A DNA stretch of 60,594 nt. Origin: a virus (Duplodnaviria; Caudoviricetes). How positions within the stretch are numbered: the stretch's first letter is position 1; every line of letters begins with the position of its first letter. The stretch spans positions 1 to 60,594 of IMG/VR virus record IMGVR_UViG_3300042549_005527. One strand, 5' to 3'. Under the pieces are notes generated by a model that had not been told where the DNA came from, ran no database searches, and worked only from the letters and a program-made list of their open reading frames with translations. The position numbers and the translations under genes are program-made. Positions 7,467-23,312 of the stretch are shown in pieces.

Positions 7467-8341
7467 TAGGCTCGCTTCATACAGGTTGTTCTAGCCATTG
7501 CTTGCCAGCTCTTGGGAAACGCCTTGCGCAGGTCCGCAACCTTCAGCACCATACGCAGGCTCAGCTCACGCAGGTGCTCTTTGTTGGTGTTGATAAACGC
7601 CACCACTTCGGCCACAGTGCTCTTGTCAAACTCGTAACGGTCCAACATGCCAGTTTCCACAATGGCCTTGATCCACAACAGCTTCTCTCTGCTGGTGTCC
7701 ATTTCCAAGTCCATGTAGTGGCAACGGCTTTCCAGTGCATCCAAGTGACTGCGGAGCTTCTTGCTACGCACATGCTCGAACTTGATGTTGGTGATGAAGA
7801 TAGCCGCACCCTTGAACTCGAAGCGATCCGGAATGCCTTCGCTACGCAGGATCCGGCTGTCGGTGTTCCAGCTGATGAAGCGACGAGCATTGGAGTCCAA
7901 AGCACCTTTCAGGATGTTGAGGCTCAGCTCTTCCTGCAGGATGTCGTCACAGTCGTCAAACACCAAGACTGATTTGCTATCGCTGAACTCGTACAATTTT
8001 GAGTACAAGCCGATGGAGCTCATGGCACCCTTGACCACTTCAAACCTGGGCTTGCGCTCGCCCAGCACATCGAACAGGCCGTCCTTTTGCAGTACTGCTT
8101 CCACGTTGTGGCTCTTGCCCACGCCGGGAGGACCCGACACAATCATGGCACGTACATCGCCCGACTTCACAGCCTTGGTCATTTCGGTAAGAATGTCAAA
8201 ACGCTCACGCAGGCGTGACAGGATCTGCTCGTCAGTCTCTTTCTCAACTGCGGCTTCTTTGGCCGCAATAGCATCGGTGTCAAACTCGATAACGTTGCTG
8301 ACTGCCTTAGAAGGCTTGCGGGCGGCTTTGGTTGCTGGCAT
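7466..8341 (-). CDS. AAA+/P-loop ATPase
   Basis: Walker A GPPGVGKS, Walker B VLVFDDCD, IFITN, ALESRC; start moved to ATG 8341 behind RBS and promoter. Confidence 0.85.
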   Translation of the reverse strand: MPATKAARKPSKAVSNVIEFDTDAIAAKEAAVEKETDEQILSRLRERFDILTEMTKAVKSGDVRAMIVSGPPGVGKSHNVEAVLQKDGLFDVLGERKPRFEVVKGAMSSIGLYSKLYEFSDSKSVLVFDDCDDILQEELSLNILKGALDSNARRFISWNTDSRILRSEGIPDRFEFKGAAIFITNIKFEHVRSKKLRSHLDALESRCHYMDLEMDTSREKLLWIKAIVETGMLDRYEFDKSTVAEVVAFINTNKEHLRELSLRMVLKVADLRKAFPKSWQAMARTTCMKRA

Positions 8342-8400
8342 AGTGTTTCCTCTGTGTGTTGTTGAAGTGTGTATTATAACAAGAATCTTGCGGTGTGTCA

Positions 8401-8464
8401 AGCTCTTTGTTGAATGCTGGACTCATTTCCTTCGTCGCTCGGCCCAGCATTCAACAAAGGGCTC
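8401..8464 (-). other. Long intergenic hairpin
   Basis: 16-bp perfect arms CTTTGTTGAATGCTGG (8405-8420) and CCAGCATTCAACAAAG (8444-8459), extendable to about 20 bp. Confidence 0.75.
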
Positions 8465-8476
8465 GCGCCCTCTGTG

Positions 8477-8827
8477 TCAGTCCATACGTGAGCCGGCGTA
8501 GACCTTTTCCAAGCCCAGCTTCTGCTTCAGCACCTCTGCGTAGGCATAGGCACCTGCTTCCAAAATGTCCAAGCTCTGTGCGGCCGCCTTGCCCGGGTTC
8601 CACAATTGCAACGAGCCGGTGTAGTCCTTGCGGAAGCCTGCGGCCTGCAGGGCCTTGCCCAGTTTGCTGTTGCTACGCACGCCCCACACATTGACCCAAG
8701 CAAAGCCACATGCGCCGCGGTCACCGCCCAGTGCGGCCAGTGTCTGCTTGCAGGCTGTACGGGCTTGGTGGGCGGCTTCGTTGCAGGCGTCTTGCACGAG
8801 GTCCAGGTTAAAGTCTTTTGCAGTCAT
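8477..8827 (-). CDS. Conserved phage hypothetical protein
   Basis: CGFAWV...SRMD; own promoter and RBS. Confidence 0.8.
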   Translation of the reverse strand: MTAKDFNLDLVQDACNEAAHQARTACKQTLAALGGDRGACGFAWVNVWGVRSNSKLGKALQAAGFRKDYTGSLQLWNPGKAAAQSLDILEAGAYAYAEVLKQKLGLEKVYAGSRMD

Positions 8828-8889
8828 TTAGTGCTCCTGTTGTGTTAGTGTGTATGTATTATAGTCTCAATTTGTCAATCTGTCAACCG

Positions 8890-9016
8890 ACCCTATTCTC
8901 TGTAGGGTTATTATATCCGTTGCCCCACCTAAGTGCCCTAGTTCCTCTAGGGCTTTAACACTGTTCCTCAGCGTCCTTAAATGCTCTTTACTTCAGCAAC
9001 CTTATTCTTTCTTCTT
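8890..9016 (-). ncRNA. Candidate small RNA with two AGGAA-loop hairpins
   Basis: Own consensus promoter (9023-9051); no RBS-ATG; GACGCUG-AGGAA-CAGUGUU and GCCCUAG-AGGAA-CUAGGGC closed by GUUGCU/GGCAAC. Confidence 0.65.
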
Positions 9017-9063
9017 GTATGTATTATAACGTCTTTTCAAAGACCTGTCAACCAGTAGGGCTA

Positions 9064-9414
9064 TTAGCTAGCCCGCACTCGTTGCGCCACTGCCTCGAGC
9101 TTCTTGTCGTTAGTGTTCACTAACATATAGGTATCGTATTCCACCATGTCAAAACGCTGGAACTGGAACTCTACGCCCTGTGCTTTGAGCACTCGGTTAA
9201 CTTCTACTAGGGTAGCTTCTGCCACTGCAATGCCCACACGGACATCAATGTCTTCTACTTCTTCAAATTTAGCCTTGGCCAGGATGTCTTCTATGTTGCT
9301 GGGGCTGTCCAGGACTAGGAACTTGCGGAGCTTCTTGTTTAAGCTCTCGTTGCAGTAGTCCTCTAGGTGGTCACCTAGTTCGTTGCTGTCTATGTCTTTA
9401 AGTGTCTTAGCCAT
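9064..9414 (-). CDS. Hypothetical protein
   Basis: Promoter 9445-9473, GGGAG RBS, ATG 9414. Confidence 0.75.
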   Translation of the reverse strand: MAKTLKDIDSNELGDHLEDYCNESLNKKLRKFLVLDSPSNIEDILAKAKFEEVEDIDVRVGIAVAEATLVEVNRVLKAQGVEFQFQRFDMVEYDTYMLVNTNDKKLEAVAQRVRAS

Positions 9415-9476
9415 CTGTCGCTCCCTTTGTGTTAGTGTGTATGTATTATAACAAGGTTTTGCCAAGTTGTCAACTG

Positions 9477-9677
9477 TTATTTTGAAGAACTTGTGTGGCT
9501 TTTAAACAACATGCCCGATAGGAAGTTCACGCCCCATGCTTGCAACAAGGTGATCTCTTTGAGTCCAAACAGTTCAGGCATGAGCCAGTCCCACAGCCAC
9601 ATGGTAGGCAGTGCCATGATCAGACTCAGCGCAACCAAAAAGGCCACGGCTGTAACGATGGTTCCAATGATGTGCAT
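9477..9677 (-). CDS. Small membrane protein
   Basis: Hydrophobic; WLWDWLMPELFGLKEIT..QAWG. Confidence 0.7.
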   Translation of the reverse strand: MHIIGTIVTAVAFLVALSLIMALPTMWLWDWLMPELFGLKEITLLQAWGVNFLSGMLFKSHTSSSK

Positions 9678-9681
9678 GGTA

Positions 9682-9906
9682 TTACTTTGGTTGGTTCAGC
9701 TGGTTCAATGTTTCTTCGTATTCCAAACGACTCAGGACCACGCCGTACATGCTATAGACCAGGAGTGCGATGCTGCCTGCACCCAGGGTGAACAGGATCT
9801 GATCGCGTGTCAGCTGTTCCAGGATCAGTGTGACGCCAATGCTGGATACAAGGATGCCGGCCACGATGCCTGCGGTTTGGAGGATTGCTCTTTGTTTAAC
9901 TGTCAT
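9682..9906 (-). CDS. Small two-TM membrane protein
   Basis: Two hydrophobic helices; promoter 9930-9959. Confidence 0.7.
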   Translation of the reverse strand: MTVKQRAILQTAGIVAGILVSSIGVTLILEQLTRDQILFTLGAGSIALLVYSMYGVVLSRLEYEETLNQLNQPK

Positions 9907-9955
9907 GGTGTTTCCTTTTTCAAAGAAGTATTATAGCATAGATCGCTAACGGTTG

Positions 9956-10195
9956 TCAAGCGATTTCTTTGTAGACTTTGTAGCCAGAGCCGCTTAGAAC
10001 ACGGATGGCCGCTTTAATCTCTTGAGCCTTGCGCTCGTAGTATTCCAACATCTCACGCACACCTTTGAGGGTGGCTTCATCGTGAGTTTCATTGAAGAAG
10101 GTGTGCGTGAACAGGTAGATCCTCTTGCCGTCTTCATCTCGGCTCTCTTGGATGGTGCCGAAGTTCTTGTATGTATGTATTTCGTTCTGTTTCAT
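9956..10195 (-). CDS. Hypothetical protein
   Basis: Promoter and AGGAG RBS; stop codon lies within the next -35 box. Confidence 0.75.
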   Translation of the reverse strand: MKQNEIHTYKNFGTIQESRDEDGKRIYLFTHTFFNETHDEATLKGVREMLEYYERKAQEIKAAIRVLSGSGYKVYKEIA

Positions 10196-10228
10196 AATGT
10201 GCTCCTAGTGTGTAAGTGTATTATACGA

Positions 10229-10456
10229 TCAAAGACGGAAACGGTCAAGCACTGAGTTGGCTTCTGTCAACGGCATCTGTGCCACAAGGTTGTCCATCTC
10301 TGCCAGCAGGATCATGCGTTGGAGGCGCATGGCTTCGGCACGATCTTCAGGATCCAGTGCCGCCAGGAACTCATCAAAGTCCTCCATGGTGTCACAAGCC
10401 CACATCTCATCCAGCAGGCTCACTTGATACTGTGTCAGTCCGTTGATTTCAATCAT
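10229..10456 (-). CDS. Hypothetical acidic protein
   Basis: GGAG RBS; operon context. Confidence 0.65.
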   Translation of the reverse strand: MIEINGLTQYQVSLLDEMWACDTMEDFDEFLAALDPEDRAEAMRLQRMILLAEMDNLVAQMPLTEANSVLDRFRL

Positions 10457-10540
10457 TAAAATTCTCCCATGATGATGAGTGCCAAGCCCATTACAATCAC
10501 GGGCATCATTACAATGGCTAGGTTGATGATTGCTTGCATT

Positions 10541-10762
10541 TCAATACTCCTTGAAGTCGCCGGATTCTTCGTTGTCGTTGTAGCCTGCGGTGTAGGCCAC
10601 AATCTCGTCGGCTGTCATGTCCTTCAGTTCCACACGGGGTGTAGTTGATGTGGCACCTGTGTAGTAGTGAGGATTGTAGTTCCTGCGGTAGTAGCTGTCT
10701 GCCATGCCGCGATCGTAAGGACCACCGTGTCGTGTGTCCATCTCAATGTGTTCTCTAATCAT
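10541..10762 (-). CDS. Conserved phage hypothetical protein
   Basis: RHGGPYDRG.ADSYY...Y.AGY; own promoter and RBS. Confidence 0.8.
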   Translation of the reverse strand: MIREHIEMDTRHGGPYDRGMADSYYRRNYNPHYYTGATSTTPRVELKDMTADEIVAYTAGYNDNEESGDFKEY

Positions 10763-10826
10763 CTTTGCTCCTTAGTGTCTATGTGTGTATTATAACAGGG
10801 TTTGGATAACCCGTCAACCTCAAGGG

Positions 10827-11144
10827 TTACCAAGCAAGTTCTTGCGGACCGTATGTGATGCGGCCTTCGTAGTCCAACTGGCTCTGCTCAAACTCAGTCA
10901 GGTAGTTGTCTGCTACGATGCGCCAGTCGATGATGTGCTCGCGGAAGTGATCGTTGTCGCATTCGATCTGCGAGCGAAGGGCCATGATGGCCACAGTGGC
11001 ATCAGCCTGGCCGCCTTTGAACTTCTTGATCACATAGTCCGAGCCGCCTTTGAACTTCCAGTACTGTGGGCAAGCACCCGTGCCGTCCCAGTCATGGGCA
11101 CCGTAGTTTTCTTGGGTCTGTGTAGTGATTAACAGTTTAGCCAT
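10827..11144 (-). CDS. Conserved phage hypothetical protein
   Basis: TQ.QENYGAHDWDG...PQYWKFKGG; start moved to ATG 11144. Confidence 0.8.
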   Translation of the reverse strand: MAKLLITTQTQENYGAHDWDGTGACPQYWKFKGGSDYVIKKFKGGQADATVAIMALRSQIECDNDHFREHIIDWRIVADNYLTEFEQSQLDYEGRITYGPQELAW

Positions 11145-11212
11145 TGTGTGCTCCTTAGTGTCTATGTGTGTATTATAACAAGGTTTTAGTACCCTGTCAA
11201 CCTGTAGGGTCT

Positions 11213-11515
11213 TTAGCGAATGCAACCCAGGTATCTGCCAAACTGATCATAGGCAGGAATGCAACTCACCGCAGGCGGCTGGTACTGTGGGCTGTACACT
11301 GGAGGAGTGCGGTACTCGTACACCTGTGGATAACCTATCTGCGGTTGAGGTGCGTAGATCACTTGCGGTTGAGGTGCGTAGATCACGCGAGGCTGGGCGA
11401 CCTGCTGGATCAGTGTAACTGCACCAATCACTGCCAAAAAATCACGTCCGTTCTGTGCTTGAGCCGAACCCACGGCACTGAGAGCAATCAAACCTGCGAT
11501 TAGAACTTTTTTCAT
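11213..11515 (-). CDS. Secreted Pro/Gln/Tyr-rich protein
   Basis: Signal peptide MKKVLIAGLIALSAVGSAQA; VIYAPQPQ twice. Confidence 0.75.
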   Translation of the reverse strand: MKKVLIAGLIALSAVGSAQAQNGRDFLAVIGAVTLIQQVAQPRVIYAPQPQVIYAPQPQIGYPQVYEYRTPPVYSPQYQPPAVSCIPAYDQFGRYLGCIR

Positions 11516-11568
11516 ATTAGACTCCTTGTTTGTCTATGTATGTATTATATATCCAAACAGCCCAATTG

Positions 11569-11766
11569 TCAACTGATTTCTTCGAAAGTCCTGCCTTTTA
11601 GGTCCAGTTTTAGCGGAGTCTTCAACTTGCGAACCTGATCCGAACCGTGTGGCACATACGCAACACAGGTGGCTTGACGACCTGAGGGCCGGGCATCGAA
11701 CACATAGATATGGTTGGGGCACTGTTCTGCCCACTCGGTAGTCTCTTGATAGATGTAGTGTTTCAT
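11569..11766 (-). CDS. Hypothetical protein
   Basis: ET.EW...PNHIY; TAATG coupling to upstream small ORF. Confidence 0.7.
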   Translation of the reverse strand: MKHYIYQETTEWAEQCPNHIYVFDARPSGRQATCVAYVPHGSDQVRKLKTPLKLDLKGRTFEEIS

Positions 11767-11879
11767 TAGATGCTCGCAATCATTGCCAGAACAGCCATGC
11801 CCCAGATTGCTATGACCTGGACGATGCCAAAGTAGAACAGGAAGTAAATCACTGTAATCCAACCAATCAATTTCAGCAT
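11766..11879 (-). CDS. 37-aa hydrophobic peptide (not in ORF track)
   Basis: Promoter 11905-11933, AGGAG RBS, MLKLIGWITVIYFLFYFGIVQVIAIWGMAVLAMIASI. Confidence 0.6.
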   Translation of the reverse strand: MLKLIGWITVIYFLFYFGIVQVIAIWGMAVLAMIASI

Positions 11880-11913
11880 CTGTGCTCCTTGTTGCGATGT
11901 ATGTATTATAGCA

Positions 11914-12111
11914 TCAATCTATCTGCACGTCAACCACTTGACCATCGCGGAACACGAAGTAGAGGTTCATGTTGCTGTAATAGACCCAGACACATTCGTT
12001 GCCCTTGGTCATAGTGTAGTGGGTCACACGAGGCCAGTTCCGGGTCATGTAGTCCTCAACCAGGATCACTTCCAGCGGGTTGAGGTCAGGGTGTATACTA
12101 ATGTCACGCAC
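11914..12111 (-). CDS. Hypothetical protein
   Basis: Overlaps the stop of the upstream ORF; protein-like composition. Confidence 0.6.
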   Translation of the reverse strand: MRDISIHPDLNPLEVILVEDYMTRNWPRVTHYTMTKGNECVWVYYSNMNLYFVFRDGQVVDVQID

Positions 12112-12316
12112 GGTCCAGCATCCTCATCAGTTCGTTGTTCAGGTAGTCCATCTCCGACCGCTCCACGTAGAAGTCAGTGGTTGGATCGTAGTAGGCACCT
12201 TCCTTTGGATCGTAGTACAAGACACGACCGGAGAAGTTGAACGGACCTTCCAGGCCCTTGCGTGGGCCGTACTTGTCGCGCATCCGATCCATTGTGTCCA
12301 AAACCTTGTATCCCAT
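12104..12316 (-). CDS. Conserved phage hypothetical protein
   Basis: GLEGPF..SGRVLYYDPKEG.YYDP..D; own promoter and RBS. Confidence 0.8.
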   Translation of the reverse strand: MGYKVLDTMDRMRDKYGPRKGLEGPFNFSGRVLYYDPKEGAYYDPTTDFYVERSEMDYLNNELMRMLDRA

Positions 12317-12367
12317 AGTGTGCTCCTTGTTGCGATGTATGTATTATAACACCTTTTGGACAACCCG

Positions 12368-12556
12368 TCAACCAATTTGTTGAATCTCTGCCCTCCAGTA
12401 GCACTCACGGCTACCACCTGTTTCCCAGTGCGCCTTGTAGGCACGGGCTTCTTCCAGTGTGGTGTAGAAGCGAGTGTCATCAGGGTCAACACGTTGGACT
12501 CCGCTGTCGTATTCAGTGACTGTGACTTTGTACAGTGTGCCTGGCTCAACTCTCAT
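12368..12556 (-). CDS. Hypothetical protein
   Basis: Promoter 12581-12609, AGGAG RBS, ATG 12556. Confidence 0.7.
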   Translation of the reverse strand: MRVEPGTLYKVTVTEYDSGVQRVDPDDTRFYTTLEEARAYKAHWETGGSRECYWRAEIQQIG

Positions 12557-12626
12557 ACACTTCTCCTTCTGTGTAAGTGTATTATAACACTGTTTGAAAG
12601 ACCCGTCAACCAGTCGGGATATAGAT

Positions 12627-12704
12627 GAACCCCGCAACAGCTTCACAGCGTGGCGGGGTTCGGGGGGTTGCCTGGGACACTACCCCCAGGACTTGGAGCA
12701 ACTC
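12627..12704 (-). ncRNA. Structured 3'-UTR motif, copy 1
   Basis: UUGCUCC..CCUGGG-GGUAGUGU-CCCAGG-CAAC directly after a stop codon; core repeated at 17389-17443. Confidence 0.5.
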
Positions 12705-12980
12705 TTAGACTAGACCAAGAGACATTGCTTTGTAACCAGCGGCAATCAACTTGCGGCTTGGTTGACCAATCTCATACTCAGTAACTTGAACACCGTTACC
12801 TGCCTTGCGTGAGTTGCCATAAACAGCAAAACCTGCTTGGCGAATACGTGAGACTTCGGCACTCATGTTCTTGATACCGAAACGGCTAGCGGCTTGGCTA
12901 GCAGAAACCTTCTCACCACTCTTCAACGCTGTGAACAGCTTGTGGGTCTTGGTGCCTTGATTGATGTTGTATGTAGTCAT
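12705..12980 (-). CDS. Winged helix-turn-helix DNA-binding protein
   Basis: L..ALKSGEKVSASQAASRFGIKNMSAEVSRIRQAGFAVY pattern; start ATG 12980. Confidence 0.65.
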   Translation of the reverse strand: MTTYNINQGTKTHKLFTALKSGEKVSASQAASRFGIKNMSAEVSRIRQAGFAVYGNSRKAGNGVQVTEYEIGQPSRKLIAAGYKAMSLGLV

Positions 12981-13046
12981 TTTGTTTTCCTTTGTTTTAG
13001 ACTGCTGTGCAGTTATCAACAAGTATACAGAAACTGTCTACCAAGG

Positions 13047-13265
13047 TCAAGCCGCAATCTTGCCAAACTCACGATCAACATAATGACCAATCAGTTTGCG
13101 TTGAATCAGCGTTACCAGATCGCCGTGCTGATCCGAAACAATGAATCGAACTGGACATTTGCCCCAGGTGCCCGAGCGTTGAAACTGGGCAAACCATTTG
13201 CGGTGTTGTTTGTTGTCCGGATCAAATGCAGTCCAAGGACGTCCGATGTAATCTAATCTACTCAT
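13047..13265 (-). CDS. Hypothetical protein
   Basis: FDP.NK.HR.WF..F...G.WG.CP.RF; RBS overlaps a 19-bp stem. Confidence 0.7.
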   Translation of the reverse strand: MSRLDYIGRPWTAFDPDNKQHRKWFAQFQRSGTWGKCPVRFIVSDQHGDLVTLIQRKLIGHYVDREFGKIAA

Positions 13266-13272
13266 GTTATCT

Positions 13273-13358
13273 CCTCTTAGTAAAATACACTCACGACATA
13301 GGCCATTGGATCTCCCTGTCTAACCGAACCAACTTCGGCAGTGTATTTTACTAAGAGG
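13273..13358 (-). ncRNA. Structured leader with 19-bp perfect stem
   Basis: CCTCTTAGTAAAATACACT (13273-13291) and AGTGTATTTTACTAAGAGG (13340-13358) enclosing two small hairpins. Confidence 0.6.
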
Positions 13359-13388
13359 GGCACTGGGCCCCAATACCCCGCTGTAGGG

Positions 13389-13814
13389 TTAGAATGGTGC
13401 GTCTTCCAAGTCTGCCAACTGTGCAGTCACTTGGGCTTTGGTCACAGCACTCTTGGCTGGCTTGGTGGCACGAGCGCGAGCAGCAATGGCGTCCAGGCTG
13501 GGCTTGCTCTTAGCAGCCTTCTTGGCAGGAGCCTTGGGTGCAGCCTTGGCCTTGGGTGCAGCTTCTGTTTCGTCGTGCTTGTCTTGATATGCCTCAAGAG
13601 CTTCACGCACCAACTTGTTGCCGTTGTCGAAGTTGATCTTCAACAGGAATGCAACAGCTTCCAACTTGGTCATTGGGTGGGTGAGTTCGATCAGATCGAT
13701 ATCGGAACTGCCGGTCTTGGCCAGGACCTTGACACGCATCTGATCATTGGCAAAGCGGGCTTTGAAAGCGCCAGCACGTTTAGAAACACCTGCAAATTTA
13801 AAAGTCTTAGACAT
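13389..13814 (-). CDS. Basic Ala/Lys-rich protein, possibly nucleic-acid binding
   Basis: K.RFAND..RVKVL.K.G..DI.LIEL..PMTK; histone-like AAPKAKAAPKAPAKK tail. Confidence 0.75.
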   Translation of the reverse strand: MSKTFKFAGVSKRAGAFKARFANDQMRVKVLAKTGSSDIDLIELTHPMTKLEAVAFLLKINFDNGNKLVREALEAYQDKHDETEAAPKAKAAPKAPAKKAAKSKPSLDAIAARARATKPAKSAVTKAQVTAQLADLEDAPF

Positions 13815-13908
13815 GATAACTCCTTTGTGTATGTGTGTATGTCTTCTGCGAACCGTTTCGCATTGTATTAATTATAACACCTTTGGACGATGGTGTCAAC
13901 CGTTTTGT

Positions 13909-14091
13909 TCAAGCGCCGTAGTAGGGACTATAGATCTCCTCCTCTTGTGGCGTATCTGCCACACCCATTTCTTGCAATTGGCCCAACACCATTTCGATTG
14001 GGCACTCCAGGGTCAACGCAATCATTCGGGCACTCATGCCGTCAATGTACAGTTGCTCAATGTCGTATGCCAGTTCTGCTACCTTGCTCAT
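13909..14091 (-). CDS. Small HTH-like protein
   Basis: LYIDGMSARMIALTLECP..V; ATGA overlap. Confidence 0.6.
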   Translation of the reverse strand: MSKVAELAYDIEQLYIDGMSARMIALTLECPIEMVLGQLQEMGVADTPQEEEIYSPYYGA

Positions 14092-14501
14092 TCCATTTCC
14101 TCCTCTTGTTTCTCTTGTTCAAATGCCATCTCCAACGGAATCCAATTCTCTTGTGTACCGTAGTGACGCACATACCACTGAGCCTTGCCTGCCCAGTTCT
14201 TGCTGAGGATGTAGTCGTACTCCTCGCCGCAGACATTTTTGTAATAGTCCTCAATGTCTTTGTATTTCTCAATCGACAACTCTTCACCGCGCTGAGTGTA
14301 GGCACCTTGTTTAGTTTCCTCAACAGAGTCGCACAGGCTTGAGAAGCCGCCCAAGTCAATCAAGTCACGCAGTTTGAACGGATCGCTGTAGTGATTCAAC
14401 AGGATCTGGCCGTTGTGTGCCAAGTAGCCGTCCCAGTGACAGTAGACTTGCTCGACTGTGCCGTCTGCGAATTCCAATGCGATTGTGCTTCGTGTTCCCA
14501 T
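14088..14501 (-). CDS. Conserved phage hypothetical protein
   Basis: MGTRS.I...VYCHWDGY...NG.IL; EEYDY. Confidence 0.8.
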   Translation of the reverse strand: MGTRSTIALEFADGTVEQVYCHWDGYLAHNGQILLNHYSDPFKLRDLIDLGGFSSLCDSVEETKQGAYTQRGEELSIEKYKDIEDYYKNVCGEEYDYILSKNWAGKAQWYVRHYGTQENWIPLEMAFEQEKQEEEME

Positions 14502-14519
14502 TTAGTGCTCCTAGTGTGT

Positions 14520-14624
14520 TTGCTTAGGCCGAGTCTCCAAACTCGCTTCGTATCCCTTGGTTACAACCCTTTTTGCATTTCTGCTGGGTTCTTACATTTG
14601 AGGATCGCCTTGCTTCTGTCTATG
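14520..14624 (-). ncRNA. Structured 5' leader / cis-regulatory RNA candidate
   Basis: About 120-nt leader after promoter 14630-14658 with nested AGGC/GCCU, AUCCU/GGGAU, AACCC/GGGUU, GCA-GAAA-UGC, CGAGU/ACUCG. Confidence 0.55.
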
Positions 14625-14654
14625 TGCTAATTATAGCACGGTTTTACCATCCTG

Positions 14655-14891
14655 TCAACCGATCAAAACAACTTGTCGGCCTTCAACTTCGTCGGCGTCC
14701 TCGTTGTCCCAGTCAGGCTCAACAACTTTGTCCATGCGGTGGTAGTCGCTGTACTGCACGAGACCCATCTCTACGCTAGAGATTGCAGGGGCAACCTGTG
14801 TGCGCCAGTGGTCGCCATAGCCGTATTCGAAGTGGACTTCGGCATCCTGCGGCATGTGTTGCAGTTGCTCGATCAATTGCGCTACATTCAT
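14655..14891 (-). CDS. Hypothetical protein
   Basis: V.QLIEQL..MPQDAEV..Y.YGDHWRT; promoter and RBS. Confidence 0.75.
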   Translation of the reverse strand: MNVAQLIEQLQHMPQDAEVHFEYGYGDHWRTQVAPAISSVEMGLVQYSDYHRMDKVVEPDWDNEDADEVEGRQVVLIG

Positions 14892-14954
14892 TTCAGCTCC
14901 TTGGTGTTTCAGTGTACGTGTATTATAGCATCAGTTTTACCAAACTGTCAACCA

Positions 14955-15098
14955 TTAACCCTTGCTCTTGGCGGGCTTCTGTTTGGCTTCAGCGGCAGCG
15001 ATCTTGCCCGAGTAGGCTTTGCCAGCTGTGTGGATCAGACCGGTTGCAGTGAACTTGATGGTGCCACCAGTGCTGGAAGGGATAGTTTTCTGTGTCAT
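14955..15098 (-). CDS. Small basic protein
   Basis: Promoter 15130-15158, AGGA RBS, ATG 15098. Confidence 0.6.
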   Translation of the reverse strand: MTQKTIPSSTGGTIKFTATGLIHTAGKAYSGKIAAAEAKQKPAKSKG

Positions 15099-15222
15099 TG
15101 TGTGTCCTAGTTGCGTTGTTGATGTGTGTATTATACAATACTTTTGATAACCTGTCAACCCAAAGGGTTATTGGATTGGTCTTACAATGGGCGGGTCACT
15201 AGCCGCCCAAACGCCTTAACTT

Positions 15223-15489
15223 TTAGCACTCAGGGTCAAAGTCTGCCCACTCTTGTGCTTCGTCCGGCTGTCCGTCACGTTCTTCAGCCTCGTACTCCTC
15301 TTGCAGTTCCTCGCTCATAGTAAGGAAGCTCTCGCAGTAGTGGAACAGTTCCTCAAACGCACGGCGCTCCGTACGGTTCAACTCTCGCAGGAACTGAGGG
15401 CCTTCCTCTTGCATAGTGTCCAACACTTGCTTCAGTGCAGACAGAGTGTTCTCGTTCATGCAATACGACATATTTGGGTAGTTGCTCAT
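15223..15489 (-). CDS. Conserved phage hypothetical protein
   Basis: NMSYC..ENT..AL; C-terminal EAQEWADFDPEC. Confidence 0.75.
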   Translation of the reverse strand: MSNYPNMSYCMNENTLSALKQVLDTMQEEGPQFLRELNRTERRAFEELFHYCESFLTMSEELQEEYEAEERDGQPDEAQEWADFDPEC

Positions 15490-15558
15490 CTTAGTTCCTT
15501 AGTGCGTTGTTGATGTATGTATTATAACAGGATTTGGATACCCTGTCAACCTGTAGGG

Positions 15559-15807
15559 TTATTGCAGCACACACTTAACGATAATGCCCGGCCCGGCACT
15601 GTAGTAGCTGTCTCCACCTTGTGTAAGTGTAACGTTTTGTTTGCCGGCAGCTTCTTGCAGTGCTTTGAGCAGTTGCACATTTCCTTGGAAATAGCACTTG
15701 ACACGACGAACGTTTGAAGCGTCGGATTTAGTTTTGTTTGTGTACACTCCGTAGGAACTGGTGGAATGTTGTGCGATAATAGCACGGACTTGCTTAGTGT
15801 TTAGCAT
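15559..15807 (-). CDS. Hypothetical protein
   Basis: Own promoter and RBS. Confidence 0.7.
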   Translation of the reverse strand: MLNTKQVRAIIAQHSTSSYGVYTNKTKSDASNVRRVKCYFQGNVQLLKALQEAAGKQNVTLTQGGDSYYSAGPGIIVKCVLQ

Positions 15808-15857
15808 GTTTGCTCCTTGTTGCGATGTATATATTATAACAACTTTTTACCAACCTG

Positions 15858-16082
15858 TCAACCTAACGTAGCAGAAACCCTATCCACTGCAGGGTCATAC
15901 TTGAGGAACACTTTGCCCTCACCGCCATCTGTGTCCACTACCGTGTAGCAGAACTCGTGCCCGTTGGTAATGCCCAGGAAGCGAGCAGACTTGAGTTTAG
16001 GGCGGCCTTTGACCGGCAAGGCCTCCTCTAGCATAAAGGAGGGCATGTTAGTAAGGAGTTTAAGTTTGTCTGCTGTAATCAT
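15858..16082 (-). CDS. Hypothetical protein
   Basis: AAGGAG RBS; F.GITNG.EFCY. Confidence 0.7.
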   Translation of the reverse strand: MITADKLKLLTNMPSFMLEEALPVKGRPKLKSARFLGITNGHEFCYTVVDTDGGEGKVFLKYDPAVDRVSATLG

Positions 16083-16091
16083 GTTGTCTCC

Positions 16092-16250
16092 TTAATCTAC
16101 ATAATAGTCAATCCGCTCTACCAGTGCATCCATTGCAGTTTTTAGTTCCCATTCCACAGTCTCGCACTCTGCAATAGTCATGCCGTCGCAGGTAGCAGTT
16201 GCCAGCATGTCTTCAATCTCACGCAGTTTCTCTAAAATTGTATCACGCAT
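16092..16250 (-). CDS. 52-aa acidic protein (not in ORF track)
   Basis: Promoter 16277-16305, TAAGGAG, MRDTILEKLREIEDML... Confidence 0.65.
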   Translation of the reverse strand: MRDTILEKLREIEDMLATATCDGMTIAECETVEWELKTAMDALVERIDYYVD

Positions 16251-16332
16251 GTCTGCTCCTTAGTGTGTAAGCATGTATTATAACGCAAAACACGCACAGG
16301 GTCAACCAAAGACCCTGTGCGCTGTACAGTTA

Positions 16333-16719
16333 TTAAACGTCCGCACACTCTGCGTAAACAGCGTCCACATGTGCAGGGTCCAAACGTGCAAGCCCTGCAA
16401 TAAATGCAGCCCCTACATCGCAAGATACGTAGCAGTCCTCCTGCATCCCCTGCTCGCTGTAGCTTACATCGTTTGCTTCAGCTTCAGCAAAGCCCAGCGT
16501 TTGCAAGTATGTACGCAGTTCCTGCATAAACTGTTTGTCTGTGTAAATTAAACCCAATGCGTTGACGTCCCAAGTGTCTGTGTTAAAGTACACGCACAGC
16601 TCGCCAAAGTCTCTCTCGTTGTTAATGTACTGCAAGTCCAGCTTCACAATGTCTACTGCTTTAGCAGTGCGGCTCCAGTAGCCACGTCCGTTTGTGTGCA
16701 GTGTTGTGTATGCTTTCAT
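16333..16719 (-). CDS. Conserved phage hypothetical protein
   Basis: G.GYWS, GEL.VYF, GLIYTD, YSEQGMQ..YVS.DV. Confidence 0.8.
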   Translation of the reverse strand: MKAYTTLHTNGRGYWSRTAKAVDIVKLDLQYINNERDFGELCVYFNTDTWDVNALGLIYTDKQFMQELRTYLQTLGFAEAEANDVSYSEQGMQEDCYVSCDVGAAFIAGLARLDPAHVDAVYAECADV

Positions 16720-16801
16720 GTATCGCTCCGTTTGTTTAGTGTAAGTGTATTATAACGCAAAAAACGCACAGTGTCAACTAAAGACCCTGTGCTGTGTAGT
16801 G

Positions 16802-16945
16802 TTACTCGACAAGCTCTTCGTCAATAGCACATGCAAGCGCATTGTAAGCATTTTGTATAGCAACATGCTCGTCTAGTTCCGCTTCCTCTAAGAGGTCTTG
16901 TATGCGTAACATTGCTACAGCGAGTTTGTGTTGTAATTCTGTCAT
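16802..16945 (-). CDS. 47-aa acidic protein (not in ORF track)
   Basis: Promoter 16973-17001, AAGGAG, MTELQHKLAVAMLRIQDLLEEAELDE... Confidence 0.65.
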   Translation of the reverse strand: MTELQHKLAVAMLRIQDLLEEAELDEHVAIQNAYNALACAIDEELVE

Positions 16946-17025
16946 AGTTGCTCCTTTTTAGTGTATGTGTGTATTATAACATGAAACACAGCGTAGAGCA
17001 AGCAATAGCCCTACGCTGTGCAGGG

Positions 17026-17280
17026 TTATACTAGCAGGAAGTTTTGTGTGCGAAGCTGTGCTTTTGCTTGTGCAAGCACACGCTCAAAACTTGCTTGACG
17101 TGCAGTTGCACTTTCCTCTAGTGTTGCAAAATCGCCACTCTTAAAAACTGCATTGCTGATGCTTACAATAATGTTGCCATTTTTGTCTGTTTTGCTTTTG
17201 TCAAAAGTAACTAACAAACGGACTGTGTTTAGTTTTTTGTTAACTACTACTTTTGCGTATGCTGTGCAGTTTGTTTGCAT
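17026..17280 (-). CDS. Hypothetical protein
   Basis: Promoter 17312-17340, GGAG RBS, ATG 17280. Confidence 0.7.
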   Translation of the reverse strand: MQTNCTAYAKVVVNKKLNTVRLLVTFDKSKTDKNGNIIVSISNAVFKSGDFATLEESATARQASFERVLAQAKAQLRTQNFLLV

Positions 17281-17388
17281 TGTGAGCTCCATTGCTGTTT
17301 AGTGTAAGTGTATTATAACGCACTTTCGCCACTTTGTCAACCCCACACTGCTGGTAGGGTTATTTGTTGTGTTTTTACAACACTCAAG

Positions 17389-17443
17389 GATGGGAGGGGT
17401 TGCTACTACGGGACACTACCCCCGCACCCCTCCCGGAGCAAAC
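17389..17443 (-). ncRNA. Structured 3'-UTR motif, copy 2
   Basis: UUGCUCC-GGGAGGGG-UGCGGG-GGUAGUGU-CCCGUA..GCAA-CCCCUCCC directly after a stop codon. Confidence 0.5.
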
Positions 17444-18058
17444 TTACTCGTTAGTGGCGCTGAGTCCACCGTCCAAGTCAATATCAATGTTCTCTTCTTC
17501 CTCTTGGTCCGCTTCCCACTCAGCCACTGACTCGCTGATGCCAAACGCCTCGTCCAACTCTACAGGCAACTCTGCCGCAATCTCTTCTGAGTTCATACCA
17601 CCGTACTCGTAGAAGGCATCATCACCGTTGTCCCATACACCAGCAAAGGCCATACCTGGCTCGTAATACATGGCACGGATGCGAAAGCCCTGTTCCATCA
17701 GCAGTTGATAGGCATTGCAAGGAGGGCTCCACGCTGAGTCAAAGCCCAGCATCAAGCCACCTGGGATGTCCTGTGCTGGATTACCGTCTGCACCCACGTC
17801 CCACTTGGTTCCCCATGTGCCCACACAGAAGTCATACCAGTTGGCAAACCCGTAACGCATACGGTTCAACTCGCTTTGTTCTTCCAGCTTCTGTTGCTCC
17901 ACTGGATCGCCCAGTGAGCCTGCTACAATATGCAGATCCTCTGGCACTGGAATGAACTCTTGTAGCAAGGCACCCTTGTTGAATGCTTCACGCACACGCT
18001 CAATCATTGCTGGGTCATCGTGGTAGATCTCTACCGAGTTGTTGCACCAATTAGGCAT
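17444..18058 (-). CDS. DUF1281/YubB-like ferredoxin-fold phage protein
   Basis: MPNWCNN, WYDF...WGTKWD, FDSAWSPP, YYEPGMAFAG. Confidence 0.75.
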   Translation of the reverse strand: MPNWCNNSVEIYHDDPAMIERVREAFNKGALLQEFIPVPEDLHIVAGSLGDPVEQQKLEEQSELNRMRYGFANWYDFCVGTWGTKWDVGADGNPAQDIPGGLMLGFDSAWSPPCNAYQLLMEQGFRIRAMYYEPGMAFAGVWDNGDDAFYEYGGMNSEEIAAELPVELDEAFGISESVAEWEADQEEEENIDIDLDGGLSATNE

Positions 18059-18207
18059 TATTGAAGCTCCTCAGGTAAGTAGGCCAACAGTGTGTCGTTG
18101 GGCAGTTCCAACAACAGTTCGTAGATCGCAGTAAAGTCACCAGCGACCACATCCTTTTGTATTTGATCAATCACTTGATCAATCAAGACTTCGCGTTCAG
18201 TAATCAT
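18058..18207 (-). CDS. 49-aa acidic protein (not in ORF track)
   Basis: ATGA and TAATG overlaps with both neighbours; LIDQVIDQIQKDV..GD.TAI.ELL. Confidence 0.6.
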   Translation of the reverse strand: MITEREVLIDQVIDQIQKDVVAGDFTAIYELLLELPNDTLLAYLPEELQ

Positions 18208-18473
18208 ACAATCTCCTCTTCCCACTCGTAGAATGTAACGCTAGGATCCATCTTCTTCAACTGCCGGGCCGCAGTGACCAACTCCTTGTATCTCCGATTG
18301 ACCTCTGCACGGGGCAGTTCGCCATCGCAGGTCAAGTTCTCAGGACTCAGGGCCGCATCAATCATGTCTGCAACACGCTGACGACCCTTAGCAGTTTTGA
18401 TCTCATACTGCTCGCCTTTGAAGAAACTGTTCCAGTGATTCTTCTGTGCAATGAACTCTTGTAGTGCTTTCAT
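18204..18473 (-). CDS. Conserved phage hypothetical protein
   Basis: LSPENLTCDGEL motif; promoter and RBS. Confidence 0.8.
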   Translation of the reverse strand: MKALQEFIAQKNHWNSFFKGEQYEIKTAKGRQRVADMIDAALSPENLTCDGELPRAEVNRRYKELVTAARQLKKMDPSVTFYEWEEEIV

Positions 18474-18529
18474 CTTTGCTCCTTTGTTGCTAAGTGTGTA
18501 TTATAGCAAGAAAACAGGGGATTGTCAAC

Positions 18530-18710
18530 TACCCGCCGGTCCGTCTCCGGTGTTCAGTGTGACAAACATTATGTCCTAGTACCCCGTCAGCACACTCGTG
18601 TAAACTTTCGTTTACAACTGCCTTCATGCCCTGTAGCAACCTGTCCCCGTCGGAACCTTTCGCTTGCTACAGGCCCTAACGGACTAGGTAACCCTGTTTG
18701 TTTCTTACTA
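18530..18710 (-). ncRNA. Candidate multi-helix non-coding RNA (about 170-180 nt)
   Basis: Own consensus promoter 18717-18745; nested helices ACAAAC/GUUUGU, CCUAGU/ACUAGG, CCGUUAG/CUGACGG, CCUGUAGCAA/UUGCUACAGG, UGUAAAC-GAAA-GUUUACA. Confidence 0.7.
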
Positions 18711-18741
18711 TGCCTAATTATAGCAAGGTTTTACCAAGTTG

Positions 18742-18972
18742 TCAACCAAACGCCTTGAATAACCCTACAATGCCTATGGCTAATGCCACAACGTTGACAG
18801 TGAACTGAGGCATGTTGCGCACTCGCACAGTCCAGATCAAGAACAACACTGTACCAATGAACGCGGCCACAATGTTCCAAGGGTAGGCCTCAGGCCCCAT
18901 GGCATTGAGCACATGCATGGCAATGATGGCCACTGCCCCTGACCACTGTAGTACTTCATTAATATTACGCAT
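18742..18972 (-). CDS. Small multi-TM membrane protein
   Basis: Three hydrophobic segments, YPWNI. Confidence 0.7.
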   Translation of the reverse strand: MRNINEVLQWSGAVAIIAMHVLNAMGPEAYPWNIVAAFIGTVLFLIWTVRVRNMPQFTVNVVALAIGIVGLFKAFG

Positions 18973-19363
18973 CAATACCTTCTCGATCAACCATGTCGCT
19001 CAACTCAGCGAATTTTTGTTTGTACTTGTAGACTTCACGTTTGGCCTCATGCAGTGCTTCGCTGATGCAGTCCTCTGCGGTGCCGTCTGTCAATACCTCA
19101 CGGGCATCCTTGTACAGGCACCCGCCCAGGTAGTGAGAGCCCATCTCAAGGCTGTCAACCATTACACGTACACGCAACATGAACCAGTCCAAGTTGCCCG
19201 AGTCAATATCCCGGGCCATCTCTTTGAGATCAAAAAGGGGAACACCGTTCTCGTCCAGGCTGTCATCGAAACAGTCTGACAGACTCAAGTCCTCGTAGCT
19301 CTTGTCTACGATCACAGTAAAGCCATCGCGCTCGTAAGTTGCCAGTTCATCGTAGTATCGCAT
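18965..19363 (-). CDS. Conserved phage hypothetical protein
   Basis: I..G.L.WF..RV....YLGGC.Y; AAGGA RBS. Confidence 0.75.
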   Translation of the reverse strand: MRYYDELATYERDGFTVIVDKSYEDLSLSDCFDDSLDENGVPLFDLKEMARDIDSGNLDWFMLRVRVMVDSLEMGSHYLGGCLYKDAREVLTDGTAEDCISEALHEAKREVYKYKQKFAELSDMVDREGIDA

Positions 19364-19376
19364 GGGTGTTCCTTAA

Positions 19377-19634
19377 TTAATAGTGGTGACGTGAGCCAGG
19401 GTCGCAGAAGTCTGCATTGTCCGGAGTCCACTCTTCTGTGGGCTCGTCTTCTTCCTCTTCGTCCTCTGGCTCGTCCTCTACAAGGTCGTTAGCCAGCATC
19501 ATCTCATGCACGGAACTCTCGCTGAGCCAGCTGAGGCACATTTCTGCCACAGCACGTGGGTCCAGCAGGCCCTCGTCCATCATGTCCAGCATCCGTGTAG
19601 TTGCAGGGCGAATCTTTGCGTACGAATTAAACAT
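19377..19634 (-). CDS. Hypothetical acidic protein
   Basis: Promoter and RBS; long Glu/Asp tract. Confidence 0.7.
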   Translation of the reverse strand: MFNSYAKIRPATTRMLDMMDEGLLDPRAVAEMCLSWLSESSVHEMMLANDLVEDEPEDEEEEDEPTEEWTPDNADFCDPGSRHHY

Positions 19635-19701
19635 ATCAGCTCCTTTGTGTTTCAGTGTAAGTGTATTATAACAGAGAACTCAATCCCTGTCAACTGTAGG
19701 G

Positions 19702-20058
19702 TTATTCAACACCCACAGTGACGTCCACTTCAATGTCTGTAACTGTGCCAGCGAGATCGTACTTGATCCCAGTAACAGCCGCGCCGTAGTTCACAGCCGC
19801 AAGTCGCTCTTTGAGCATACTCTCGAGATCTCCCAGCATGTCGCCTAGGAAGTCCGCAGTGCTGTCTTTAACGCCACGCAGGGTCTCGTTGATCCCGTTG
19901 CGAGACAAGTCCTCTTGCCCGTCCATGATCATGTCAATGAACGCTTCTGTTTGGCTGATCAAGGCCTGCTCTACAATAGCGTTGATCAGCTCTCTGTTGG
20001 CAAACATAAAGGCGCTGGCCTTAAACGTCTTGTCGCCTGCTTTGAAAATCACTGACAT
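19702..20058 (-). CDS. Hypothetical protein
   Basis: Promoter and AGGAG RBS. Confidence 0.75.
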   Translation of the reverse strand: MSVIFKAGDKTFKASAFMFANRELINAIVEQALISQTEAFIDMIMDGQEDLSRNGINETLRGVKDSTADFLGDMLGDLESMLKERLAAVNYGAAVTGIKYDLAGTVTDIEVDVTVGVE

Positions 20059-20137
20059 GGTCTTCTCCTGTTGAACAAGTATGTATTATAACACTGAACA
20101 GTGAGCAGGGCAACCTATAACCCTGCTCACTGTAGGG

Positions 20138-20410
20138 TCAAACAACTTCCAGCATGGACGCAGGCACTTTCCACAAGCCCTGCTGAGTACGTACTGTGAC
20201 AAACTTGATGGCGATCTTGTCCACAACACCCTGCATGGTGATGCCTGTTTTGGTGCTGGTAAAACGCACAGCACCACCCAAGCGAACTGCTCGCTTGTTG
20301 GCATCACCCAGACGGGCCCGGGCAAACTTCACAGCGTCAATGATGCTGGACAGTTGCTCGTTGGTGAAGTTGCCTGCCAGGATCTCTGCGTTGACTGATT
20401 GAATACTCAT
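20138..20410 (-). CDS. Hypothetical protein with SH3-like C-terminus
   Basis: G..V.F....G.V.KIAIKFVTV....W.VP.SML. Confidence 0.7.
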   Translation of the reverse strand: MSIQSVNAEILAGNFTNEQLSSIIDAVKFARARLGDANKRAVRLGGAVRFTSTKTGITMQGVVDKIAIKFVTVRTQQGLWKVPASMLEVV

Positions 20411-20595
20411 CGTTGCTCCTTAGTGTGTAAGTGTATATTATACGGTAAAACCGATAACCTTGTCAACCATCGGGTTTTTACGAGCCACAGCCCGCCATGC
20501 CCGATTGGCCTTAGCATATTGCTGGGCGTTTGTAGTAAAGCCCGGGAAGCGAGTCTTGGCCCAGATCACAAAGTTCAAACGTTCAATCTCGTTCT

Positions 20596-20817
20596 TCATT
20601 CTTCAACTCCGAAATGTTGTTTAATAGTATCTGCCACATGCGGAAAATACTGCGATGAATGATCCATTGAATCTATCAAACCAGCACATTCCTTCACAAT
20701 CAACTCGGCGAATCGTTCAGCAAACTTCTGCAAGTCCTGCATGTCCATTGTGGACCAAGTGCCGGCGAATTTCTCATCCAGCGTTTGGCCCATCAGTGCT
20801 TTAATTTGTTCGTTCAT
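20596..20817 (-). CDS. Conserved phage hypothetical protein
   Basis: FAELIVKEC...IKQHFGVEE. Confidence 0.75.
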   Translation of the reverse strand: MNEQIKALMGQTLDEKFAGTWSTMDMQDLQKFAERFAELIVKECAGLIDSMDHSSQYFPHVADTIKQHFGVEE

Positions 20818-21092
20818 CACATGCTCCAGTAGAGTTCGCTTGAAGGATCGCATGAGCGGGGTGTGTCATGCGCGATCTCCACTGCCGCACCAGTCATCAA
20901 GTTGCGCACAGTTTTCATGCTGGGAGTCCAATCAAAGCGCCAGCCATCTTCGGGCCTGTACAAGGGAAACAGTTCGGCCACTGTACGGCGCATGGCATTG
21001 TCGTCCTTGACAGGCCAAACTGTAGTGCTGAACAGTCGCTCGCCAGTTCGGCAACGACGATCTGCTTTGTAGATGTATAGTGTGTAACTCAT
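20817..21092 (-). CDS. Conserved phage hypothetical protein
   Basis: YK.DRR..GER; NLMTG..VEI..DTP..CDPSSE.YWSM. Confidence 0.8.
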   Translation of the reverse strand: MSYTLYIYKADRRCRTGERLFSTTVWPVKDDNAMRRTVAELFPLYRPEDGWRFDWTPSMKTVRNLMTGAAVEIAHDTPRSCDPSSELYWSM

Positions 21093-21143
21093 CTCTGCTC
21101 CTTAGTGTGTAAGTGTCAATTATAACACGGTTTTACCTAGTTG

Positions 21144-21482: not shown

Positions 21483-21902
21483 GTGTGTATTATAGCAAGG
21501 TTTTACCAACGTGTCAACACTTTTTTGCAAAAACTTTTGTTGTGTTTTAGCCACACGTTTGGCACTGCCGCCGGTTAACATAACGCCAAGAGAAAACCCT
21601 AAAACCCGAAGGGCAGTAGGGTTTCTCAGTCAGTGCGTCCGCAAGTGTCAGCACACTGCCCTTCCTGCTGGTTCCTGCTCATAGAGCTAGCCTTAACTGC
21701 CGGAAGCAAACAGTCGCAGGTTCAGTTGTTGCCAAGGCCCCTACGGAACTGATTCAACCGCGCTGCCCACAGCCTCCAAGACTTCCGGCTCCTAGCTGCT
21801 TTGTCGCGGTCTATGCGCCAACTTAAGGTTTCTAATTCTATCGAGTGTATATATACACTACAGTGACTCCGCCTTCTATACAGTGTGTATTCTACAGTGT
21901 AA

Positions 21903-21980
21903 TGGTGGGCCGTCTGTGAGTCGAACACAGCACCAATGGATTATGAGTCCACTGCTCTAACCAACATGAGCTAACGGCCC
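21903..21980 (-). tRNA. tRNA with CAU anticodon, most likely tRNA-Ile2
   Basis: GGGCCGT..AGCTCA..GGTTAGAGCA GTGGA-CTCATAA-TCCAT ..CTGTG-TTCGACT-CACAG ACGGCCC-ACCA; full cloverleaf, encoded CCA, own promoter 22012-22040. Confidence 0.92.
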
Positions 21981-22466: not shown

Positions 22467-22501
22467 TACAGTTATTACTGTAGTGTATATCTACACTGCG
22501 A

Positions 22502-23294: not shown

Positions 23295-23312
23295 TGTGTG
23301 GGTTCCTTTGTG

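Follow-up and report, generated by a model that had tools for sequence, protein, structure and literature searches.

The DNA analysed here (the window) is the whole of a 60,594-base IMG/VR virus record (IMGVR_UViG_3300042549_005527), which is rated 17% complete by CheckV and is therefore a fragment of a jumbo phage genome. On its minus strand, at positions 9016 to 8890, lies a discrete promoter-driven gene for a structured non-coding RNA, set within about 26 early-type promoter cassettes of this uncultured phage. An earlier note on this DNA had described the locus as a candidate phage small RNA (sRNA) that may sequester the host translational repressor CsrA/RsmA. The parts of the locus that it listed are present: the promoter matches the consensus throughout and is not followed by a ribosome-binding site and ATG of its own; the fold contains two 7-bp hairpins that differ in their stems and share an AGGAA loop; and the motifs AAGGAC and ACGGAU as well as the closing stem are all found. 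In the window copy, the GGA triplets of the two loops are 22 nucleotides (nt) apart. The first open reading frame (ORF) of at least 30 amino acids (aa) that is opened by a Shine-Dalgarno sequence (SD) and an ATG is found only at +195 and belongs to the next cassette (Table 1).

For the 130-nt stretch a folding energy of -36.3 kcal/mol (z -4.54) was obtained, which none of 200 shuffles equals; for the 91-nt core the value is -29.8 kcal/mol (z -4.35). Transcription probably starts near 9016, as judged from the spacing to the -10 element. The stretch after the promoter is about 125 nt long, but the 3' end is not defined by the sequence, because no terminator-like site follows, and the proposed transcript length of about 110-125 nt is for this reason deduced from the position of the next promoter. 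The third hairpin between the core and this promoter may mark the 3' end or a processing site; it is not a U-tract terminator. It is specific to one lineage: in 7 of the 45 genomic contexts described below, the window included, the core is followed by this hairpin and then by a promoter. The hairpin is built on an ACCCTAC motif that precedes many promoters of the window.

Table 1. Parts of the RNA gene and of the adjacent cassette (positions in the window)
Feature	Position	Strand	Details
Promoter P1	9051..9023	-	TTGACA 9051-9046, 17-nt spacer, TATAAT 9028-9023; 12 of 12 consensus positions
5' leader AAGAAGAAAGAAUAAG	9001..9016	-	purine-rich, single-stranded; unpaired in the minimum free energy (MFE) fold
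Y-shaped core, 82 nt	8919..9000	-	MFE structure identical to centroid; z -4.35
Outer (closing) stem	9000-8995 with 8924-8919	-	from the fold
Purine junction GAAGUAAAGAG, 11 nt	8994-8984	-	from sequence and fold
Middle stem	8983-8976 with 8933-8926	-	from the fold; carries both hairpins
Hairpin 1, 7-bp stem	8975-8957; loop AGGAA 8968-8964	-	only invariant GGA site of the family
Hairpin 2, 7-bp stem	8953-8935; loop AGGAA 8946-8942	-	loop sequence varies among homologues
Third hairpin ACCCUA-CAGAGAA-UAGGGU	8890..8908	-	from the fold; between core and next promoter
Promoter P2 of the next cassette	8886..8858	-	12 of 12 consensus positions; drives the 116-aa ORF
116-aa ORF	8477..8827	-	PHROG match phrog_22149, function unknown; AGGAG SD, ATG at 8827

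Conservation and genomic contexts of the RNA

To the 66 related virus loci that were fetched through the neighbouring 116-aa protein, four pattern scans were added, three on viral and one on metagenome contigs, with matches checked by a covariance model (R1). Seven of the 66 loci hold the element, at 95-98% identity; its promoter is present in each of them, but a different gene comes behind it. All homologues are from uncultured sources, namely virus contigs and metagenome contigs with lake and marine labels. The 41 distinct variants of the 91-nt core were aligned with MAFFT (alignment A3) and are 80.4-98.9% identical to the core of the window (median 89.6%).

The fold is kept in this alignment: across the four helices 96.4% of the 1148 pair cells are paired, compared with 34-48% in slid controls, and five pairs show compensatory changes with both sides changed. 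The stem pair of hairpin 1 in columns 32/49 is A-U in 18 variants and C-G in 22; the stem pair of hairpin 2 in columns 58/68 is U-A in 17, U-G in 11, C-G in eight and unpaired in five. For four of five measures none of 500 shuffles reached the observed value; the fifth, the count of further pair types, was reached by 39 of 500. The covariance check of homologues that had been suggested for this locus is thereby answered in favour of a conserved structure, and the promoter, too, is kept at a fixed distance. Single-base insertions or deletions occur at two alignment columns, which rules out a conserved reading frame. Among the 36 unpaired columns 18 are invariant, in part forced by the search patterns; such invariance would be more in keeping with contacts to a protein or within a tertiary structure than with a simple spacer. 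The junction GAAGUAAAGAG consists of invariant unpaired purines with few variable positions. A/G-rich leaders related to AAGAAGAAAGAAUAAG occur in homologues.

The RNA is better conserved than the coding genes around it. In two loci (L032 and L053) the 116-aa protein is 75-76% identical to the one of the window, with RNA identities of 95% (L032, 130 nt) and 97.8% (L053, 90 nt). The DnaB protein of the element-bearing record G006 is 55% identical to the one of the window, and the two RNA cores differ at 11 of 91 positions (counted on A3). Core sequence, four helices and the loop of hairpin 1 are conserved across at least 41 variants while flanks and neighbours change, and the locus is very probably a genuine gene for a conserved structured RNA.

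The RNA was found in 45 distinct contexts. In 43 of these a promoter of the form TTGnnn-N16-18-TAnAnT ends 16-35 nt (mostly 19-22 nt) ahead of the core. In the remaining two (L095, L101) the core is placed 5 nt after the encoded CCA of a tRNA-Asp, within a 23-tRNA array, and here the purine leader is missing. L132 and L160 have the RNA flanked by tRNA-Trp and tRNA-Cys (ARAGORN), and in L164 and L167 a tRNA, judged by eye, comes after it; the RNA is thus found beside or inside phage tRNA arrays in six of 45 contexts. The only tRNA of the window, a tRNA-Met (ARAGORN) at 21903-21980, is 13 kb away from the RNA; a promoter of the same type as P1 (22040..22012, minus strand) drives this tRNA (21980..21903).

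What follows the core differs as well: 13 contexts have a full second promoter 1-13 nt past the core (read by eye) and at least eight have an SD and ORF 20-40 nt past it. The first downstream ORF is from at least five unrelated families, among them a 127-129-aa family starting with MTKVNYD and ORFs of 58, 64 and 101 aa, or tRNAs are found in its place. The 116-aa ORF is not a conserved partner of the RNA. In five close relatives (L008, L011, L015, L019 and L028) it is separated from the element by about 1.4 kb of genes, which are missing in the window. Each of the five element-bearing records has the element in single copy. These contexts show the RNA to be an autonomous module that is portable between promoter cassettes and tRNA arrays.

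The core is directly followed, in 11 contexts, by another conserved domain of about 95 nt, and both together are about 190 nt long (L123:3377-3470, with equivalents in L095, L101, L115, L128, L131, L135, L136, L147, L156 and L167). The window lacks this second domain, for which Rfam gave no match at gathering score. It has a long-range stem that covaries (CGUUC/GAACG, GUUUC/GAAAC, ACUCC/GGAGU, ACGCC/GGCGU, GUUCU/AGAAC), and a GGAAC in the domain is therefore a stem strand and not a motif. A terminal hairpin follows and then an invariant CAGCCAAUC-like tail, which is, by eye, complementary to the 5' strand of the outer stem of the core; an alternative pairing between this tail and the outer stem is conceivable.

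The cassette region, its phage and the likely host

Matches to TTGACA-N17-TATAAT with at most one mismatch number 26 on the minus strand from about 8.4 to 24.3 kb; the whole window has 31 of them, against 0.65 expected. An SD and ATG are found 24-36 nt past the -10 element in 20 of the 27 minus-strand promoters of the window, and the region is therefore an array of small early-type promoter-gene cassettes. The stretch 7500-10500 has one terminator-like site, inside an ORF at 8720..8706, compared with 3.1 in shuffles. The 26 near-consensus sigma-70 promoters (8373-24258, minus strand) have similar spacers and often a TG ahead of the -10 element; several are preceded by a AATAACCCTAC(A)GG-like motif, which is often part of a hairpin that closes the previous cassette. 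The promoter cassettes coincide with a step in G+C content, which is 0.47-0.52 at 4001-26000 and 0.36-0.45 at 0-4 kb and 26-60 kb.

Three further promoters of this strand are notable. In the cassette at 18529-18745, about 180 nt separate a consensus promoter (18745..18717) from the next one (18528..18500), and no convincing SD-ATG is found in between. The folding energy of this stretch is -64.1 kcal/mol (z -4.18), and its 5' leader is similar to the one that the RNA studied here has in other phages. It has no Rfam match at gathering score and is probably another, new phage small RNA. The promoter at 14658..14630 (region 14502-14658) has an unusually long leader of 128 nt ahead of its SD-ATG, and for the one at 21517..21489 a scripted scan found no SD-ATG within 260 nt. 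Outside the cassettes, at 25119-39551 on the plus strand, a 1695-aa protein combines a subtilase (Peptidase_S8) domain with He_PIG Ig-like repeats, and several radical-SAM proteins, B12-binding ones among them, come after it; these genes look like a cluster for peptide or sugar modification.

The DnaB-like helicase of the window has its closest counterparts in Pseudomonas phage PA5oct (53.6%), Agrobacterium phage Atu_ph07 (52%), Sinorhizobium phage Phosso and Xanthomonas phage XaC1. Between contigs, the RNA and its cassettes are far more alike than the helicase (55-59% at the amino acid level), which suggests that cassettes of the early region are exchanged between otherwise diverged phages.

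A clue to the host is provided by transfer-messenger RNA (tmRNA). In G006, an element-bearing record of 285 kb, there is a permuted tmRNA that scores 132 bits on the betaproteobacterial model of Rfam (gathering score 84) and has the tag ANDSQFALAA; three of four complete relatives have a tmRNA of the same kind. In the related jumbo phages (L079:8466-8856, L188, L189 and L190), the permuted (two-piece) tmRNAs of betaproteobacterial type have the tags ANDSQFALAA or ANDEQFALAA; G001 has a divergent tmRNA with a long tag. The 3-kb contig L227, binned into a metagenome-assembled genome (MAG) from a lake, has the same permuted tmRNA together with tRNAs and may be a phage fragment. Among bacteria, the tag ANDxQFALAA is found in Uliginosibacterium, Dechloromonas and other Rhodocyclaceae and in Limnobacter, but also in Pasteurellaceae. 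The window's own record, the fragment rated 17% complete, has no tmRNA hit (RF01850), and its helicase is 55-59% identical to those of the tmRNA-bearing phages, which is no closer than to PA5oct.

CsrA (PF02599) was found in none of five sampled genomes that share the tag, four of them betaproteobacterial by title and one a lake MAG titled only as proteobacterium, and among 301 genomes sampled from the order to which Limnobacter belongs, only two have a CsrA match above the cut-off. In a sample of 151 genomes of this order, which included one unpublished genome (G038), the permuted tmRNA type passed the cut-off in three, G038 not among them. These data are no more than suggestive of a host from a betaproteobacterial order that rarely has CsrA. 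As to whether the host has csrA, a question on which the sponge proposal depends, the lineage may lack it, but the assignment of the host is indirect.

Comparison with CsrA sponges and other known RNAs

In the sponge reading, which goes back to the earlier note, the hairpin loops would bind the CsrA (RsmA) dimer of the host through their GGA triplets and titrate it from mRNAs. Sponges of the CsrB/Rsm type carry many loop GGA motifs, have a Rho-independent terminator and occur in hosts that encode CsrA. The window copy does have two identical AGGAA pentaloops, and the 22 nt between their GGA triplets are within the range that one CsrA dimer can bridge; the promoter is strong, the phage mRNAs carry AGGAG-type SDs, and among the closest relatives in culture are phages that infect Pseudomonas and Xanthomonas, two genera that have RsmA. 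The number of GGA triplets, in contrast, is at chance level: there are four in 127 nt, two of them in loops, where 2.14 are expected from the GGA frequency of the strand, but four or more are found in 17.9% of windows of the same size on the same strand (6-25 kb) and dinucleotide shuffles average 4.55.

Loop conservation is divided. Hairpin 1 has its GGA in all 41 variants (loop AGGAA in 40, GGGAA in one), as would be expected of a sponge, and GGAAC is kept in 25 of 25 stretches that were found via a 3'-side pattern not specifying the loop. The GGA of loop 2, on the other hand, is lost in 17 of the 41 (AGGAA in 24, AGCA in 15, AGAAA and AGAA in one each), AAGGAC survives in 14 and ACGGAU in seven, and 12 of the 41 cores have a single GGA only. 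With only the GGA of hairpin 1 kept, and one copy of the element per record, such a one-site RNA would make a poor sponge. The GGAAC in the second domain of the longer homologues adds no site, being a strand of a covarying stem. There is no terminator, and the host marker points to Betaproteobacteria, with CsrA rare in the order sampled. GacA-type palindromes are no more frequent in the window than expected (31 with at most three mismatches against 33.8); the nearest one, at 9108-9125 with three mismatches, is 57-74 nt upstream of the -35 element of P1, falls in the 3' part of a 133-aa ORF and was treated as chance.

The Infernal search that had been recommended for the locus does not support the proposal either: no CsrB/RsmX/Y/Z-type family matches the element even at E values up to 10. 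The four defining features that were tested are lacking and the RNA is not a member of the Csr/Rsm family. What remains of the phage sRNA sponge is a promoter-driven, non-coding, structured RNA with a conserved fold; the function as a CsrA/RsmA sponge is not supported, and we regard it as highly improbable.

Nor does the RNA, on the evidence of the searches made, belong to any other family of Rfam 15. At gathering score, cmscan of the whole window with Rfam 15 returned only a tRNA, and six homologous loci gave nothing at the element; with E values up to 10, the 501-nt region of the locus had only a chance match to a long non-coding RNA outside the element. A blastn search of 8400-9500 against 50,697 GenBank phage records gave no match, and one strict core pattern had no match among bacteria and archaea, with 185,579 species represented by a single genome each. 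With covariance model R2, PA5oct, T4, Atu_ph07, Phosso and XaC1 were negative (0 of 5), compared with 5 of 5 element-bearing records as positive control. Full-text searches of the literature brought up no paper on either a CsrA sponge encoded by a phage or the RNA described here.

Several known types of RNA were considered and rejected. A tRNA, tmRNA or Y RNA identity is not supported: ARAGORN finds only the tRNA-Met in the window, RF01850 has no match in G000, and a TROVE protein was found in none of the five element-bearing records. Mimicry of the sarcin-ricin loop, a hammerhead-like core, a kink-turn and a decoy for SD or anti-SD sequences are partial resemblances, which the fold does not support. 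In the case of a CRISPR-repeat mimic (Racr-like), the hairpins are locked within two further conserved helices.

Among comparable systems, CsrB and RsmX/RsmY/RsmZ are similar in being small and non-coding, in having GGA in hairpin loops and probably in being highly expressed, and the two GGA loops of the window copy are within the reach of one dimer. The RNA differs from them by the absence of an Rfam match, by one conserved GGA, by GGA density at chance level and by the lack of a terminator; its promoter is a constitutive consensus promoter that does not depend on GacA/UvrY, and it is encoded by a jumbo phage of lytic type whose likely host order rarely has CsrA. The rnaC and rnaD RNAs of T4 ('species 1 and 2') are likewise phage-encoded small RNAs of stable type, annotated in the T4 record as small stable RNAs directly after tRNA-Arg and presumably freed by tRNA-type processing; no function is known for them. 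Their location in or beside a tRNA array is one that the RNA described here has in six of 45 contexts. There is no homology: R2 with filters off found nothing over rnaC/rnaD at the T4 tRNA locus (best score 12.4 bits, E 0.13, elsewhere) and nothing in the whole T4 record at E values up to 0.1, and the RNA of the window differs further in having its own promoter, 13 kb from the only tRNA.

The putL and putR RNAs of HK022 are also promoter-proximal and non-coding with two neighbouring stem-loops. In contrast to these, the RNA described here is also found in tRNA arrays and ahead of second promoters, no terminators are found downstream, and two additional helices enclose its pair of hairpins. GOLLD and ROOL are conserved structured phage RNAs of unknown role that are repeatedly associated with tRNAs; they are in Rfam and several hundred nt long, unlike the core, which has no Rfam match and measures 82 nt, or about 190 nt if the second domain of some phages is included. 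We file the RNA as a new family among the phage-encoded small structured RNAs of early or tRNA regions.

Possible roles

The reading that we favour, tentatively and with less than even confidence in the chain as a whole, is that of an early-expressed, trans-acting, protein-binding stable RNA. Host RNA polymerase would transcribe the RNA early and strongly, and the RNA would arise within a tRNA precursor or at the 5' end of a longer, read-through transcript. Host RNases would then trim it to the stable folded core, either by RNase P/E-type cleavage at tRNA borders or at the hairpin at the end of the cassette. Origin by read-through and excision by host RNases are proposed because there is no terminator and because the RNA is sometimes found in tRNA precursors. 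The core would act in trans as ligand or decoy for a protein, recognised through the invariant GGAAC loop of hairpin 1 and the invariant purine junction. Contact with a protein is probable because complementary targets are not enriched in the window and because the varied neighbours misfit a gene-specific role in cis. CsrA is an unlikely partner. The RNA may instead be a decoy for another RNA-binding protein of the host (possible targets being global post-transcriptional regulators, RNases and defence nucleases), delivered in bulk by the consensus early promoter or by processing of tRNA precursors; in this more specific form the proposal is rather doubtful.

Several points weigh against a trans-acting, protein-binding RNA. 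No partner was identified among the families searched: neither CsrA (PF02599) nor TROVE/Ro60 (PF05731) was found in the five element-bearing records, which are 17-86% complete. The terminator-site scan found no intrinsic terminator between 9016 and 8858. In at least eight contexts the core is a plain 5' untranslated region of an ORF, and a role in cis is possible. The search patterns themselves account for part of the invariance seen in loop 1 and in the 5' half. Covariation is real, but there is little of it, as it is based on five pairs among mutually close sequences (the lowest pairwise identity among the variants is 75%), and related sequences can beat shuffles without selection. Models R1 and R2 had no convincing match in five complete relatives of 320-353 kb, where the two weak R2 matches (20.4 and 14.8 bits) are inside apparent coding sequence; these five phages thus do without the RNA, and the wider group does not depend on it.

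A serious rival, although in our view unlikely, is a leader module that acts in cis on its own read-through transcript, as 5' stabiliser, as processing signal or as put-like RNA that modifies the polymerase. Such a role would agree with the promoter-proximal placement, with the fact that a terminator never follows, and with the two adjacent hairpins, which resemble the HK022 put RNAs in their layout; moreover, an SD-ATG follows with no intervening promoter about 20 nt past the core in L133, L134, L141 and L176 and about 40 nt past it in L143, L144, L150 and L162. Yet the downstream gene is not conserved, a leader is redundant for that gene in the 13 contexts with a full second promoter just past the core, and the copies in tRNA arrays have no mRNA to regulate. 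In addition, the terminator-poor region leaves little to antiterminate, and the 14-16-nt single-stranded leader ahead of the fold is unlike the arrangement of 5'-hairpin stabilisers.

The invariance of the unpaired segments could also be explained by an antisense sRNA that base-pairs with host or phage mRNAs, with the purine junction or loop 1 as seed, and there is a loose resemblance between the A/G-rich leader and Hfq sites of the ARN type. This is improbable: in the 60.6-kb window the complement of the junction has two matches with at most two mismatches, one of them the locus itself, against 5.7 expected, and the complement of loop 1 has two with at most one mismatch, again including the locus, against 1.0 expected. 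Hfq-dependent sRNAs use a terminator with U-tail, and the RNA has neither. Finally, the rearranged neighbourhood, with about 1.4 kb of genes missing in the window, could mean that the element is a decayed gene cassette or a spacer between two promoters with no function at all, but the compensatory changes, the better conservation than that of the flanking coding genes and the presence in unrelated contexts including tRNA arrays make this extremely improbable.

Few small RNAs of phages are known, and most of them are from temperate coliphages. The RNA adds a compact fold that is kept at a median identity of about 90% across phages whose replication helicases are only 55-59% identical, and, with the 41-variant alignment and the covariance model, a new RNA family that can be tested. 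It also corrects the initial view of the locus: two eye-catching GGA loops are insufficient to call a CsrA sponge. If the RNA is indeed a decoy for a host protein, it would be an RNA-based factor for host takeover or counter-defence in lytic jumbo phages and would provide a functional clue to the long-unexplained small stable RNAs in phage tRNA clusters. The family is thus a possible entry point to the role that stable RNAs of tRNA clusters have in large phages.

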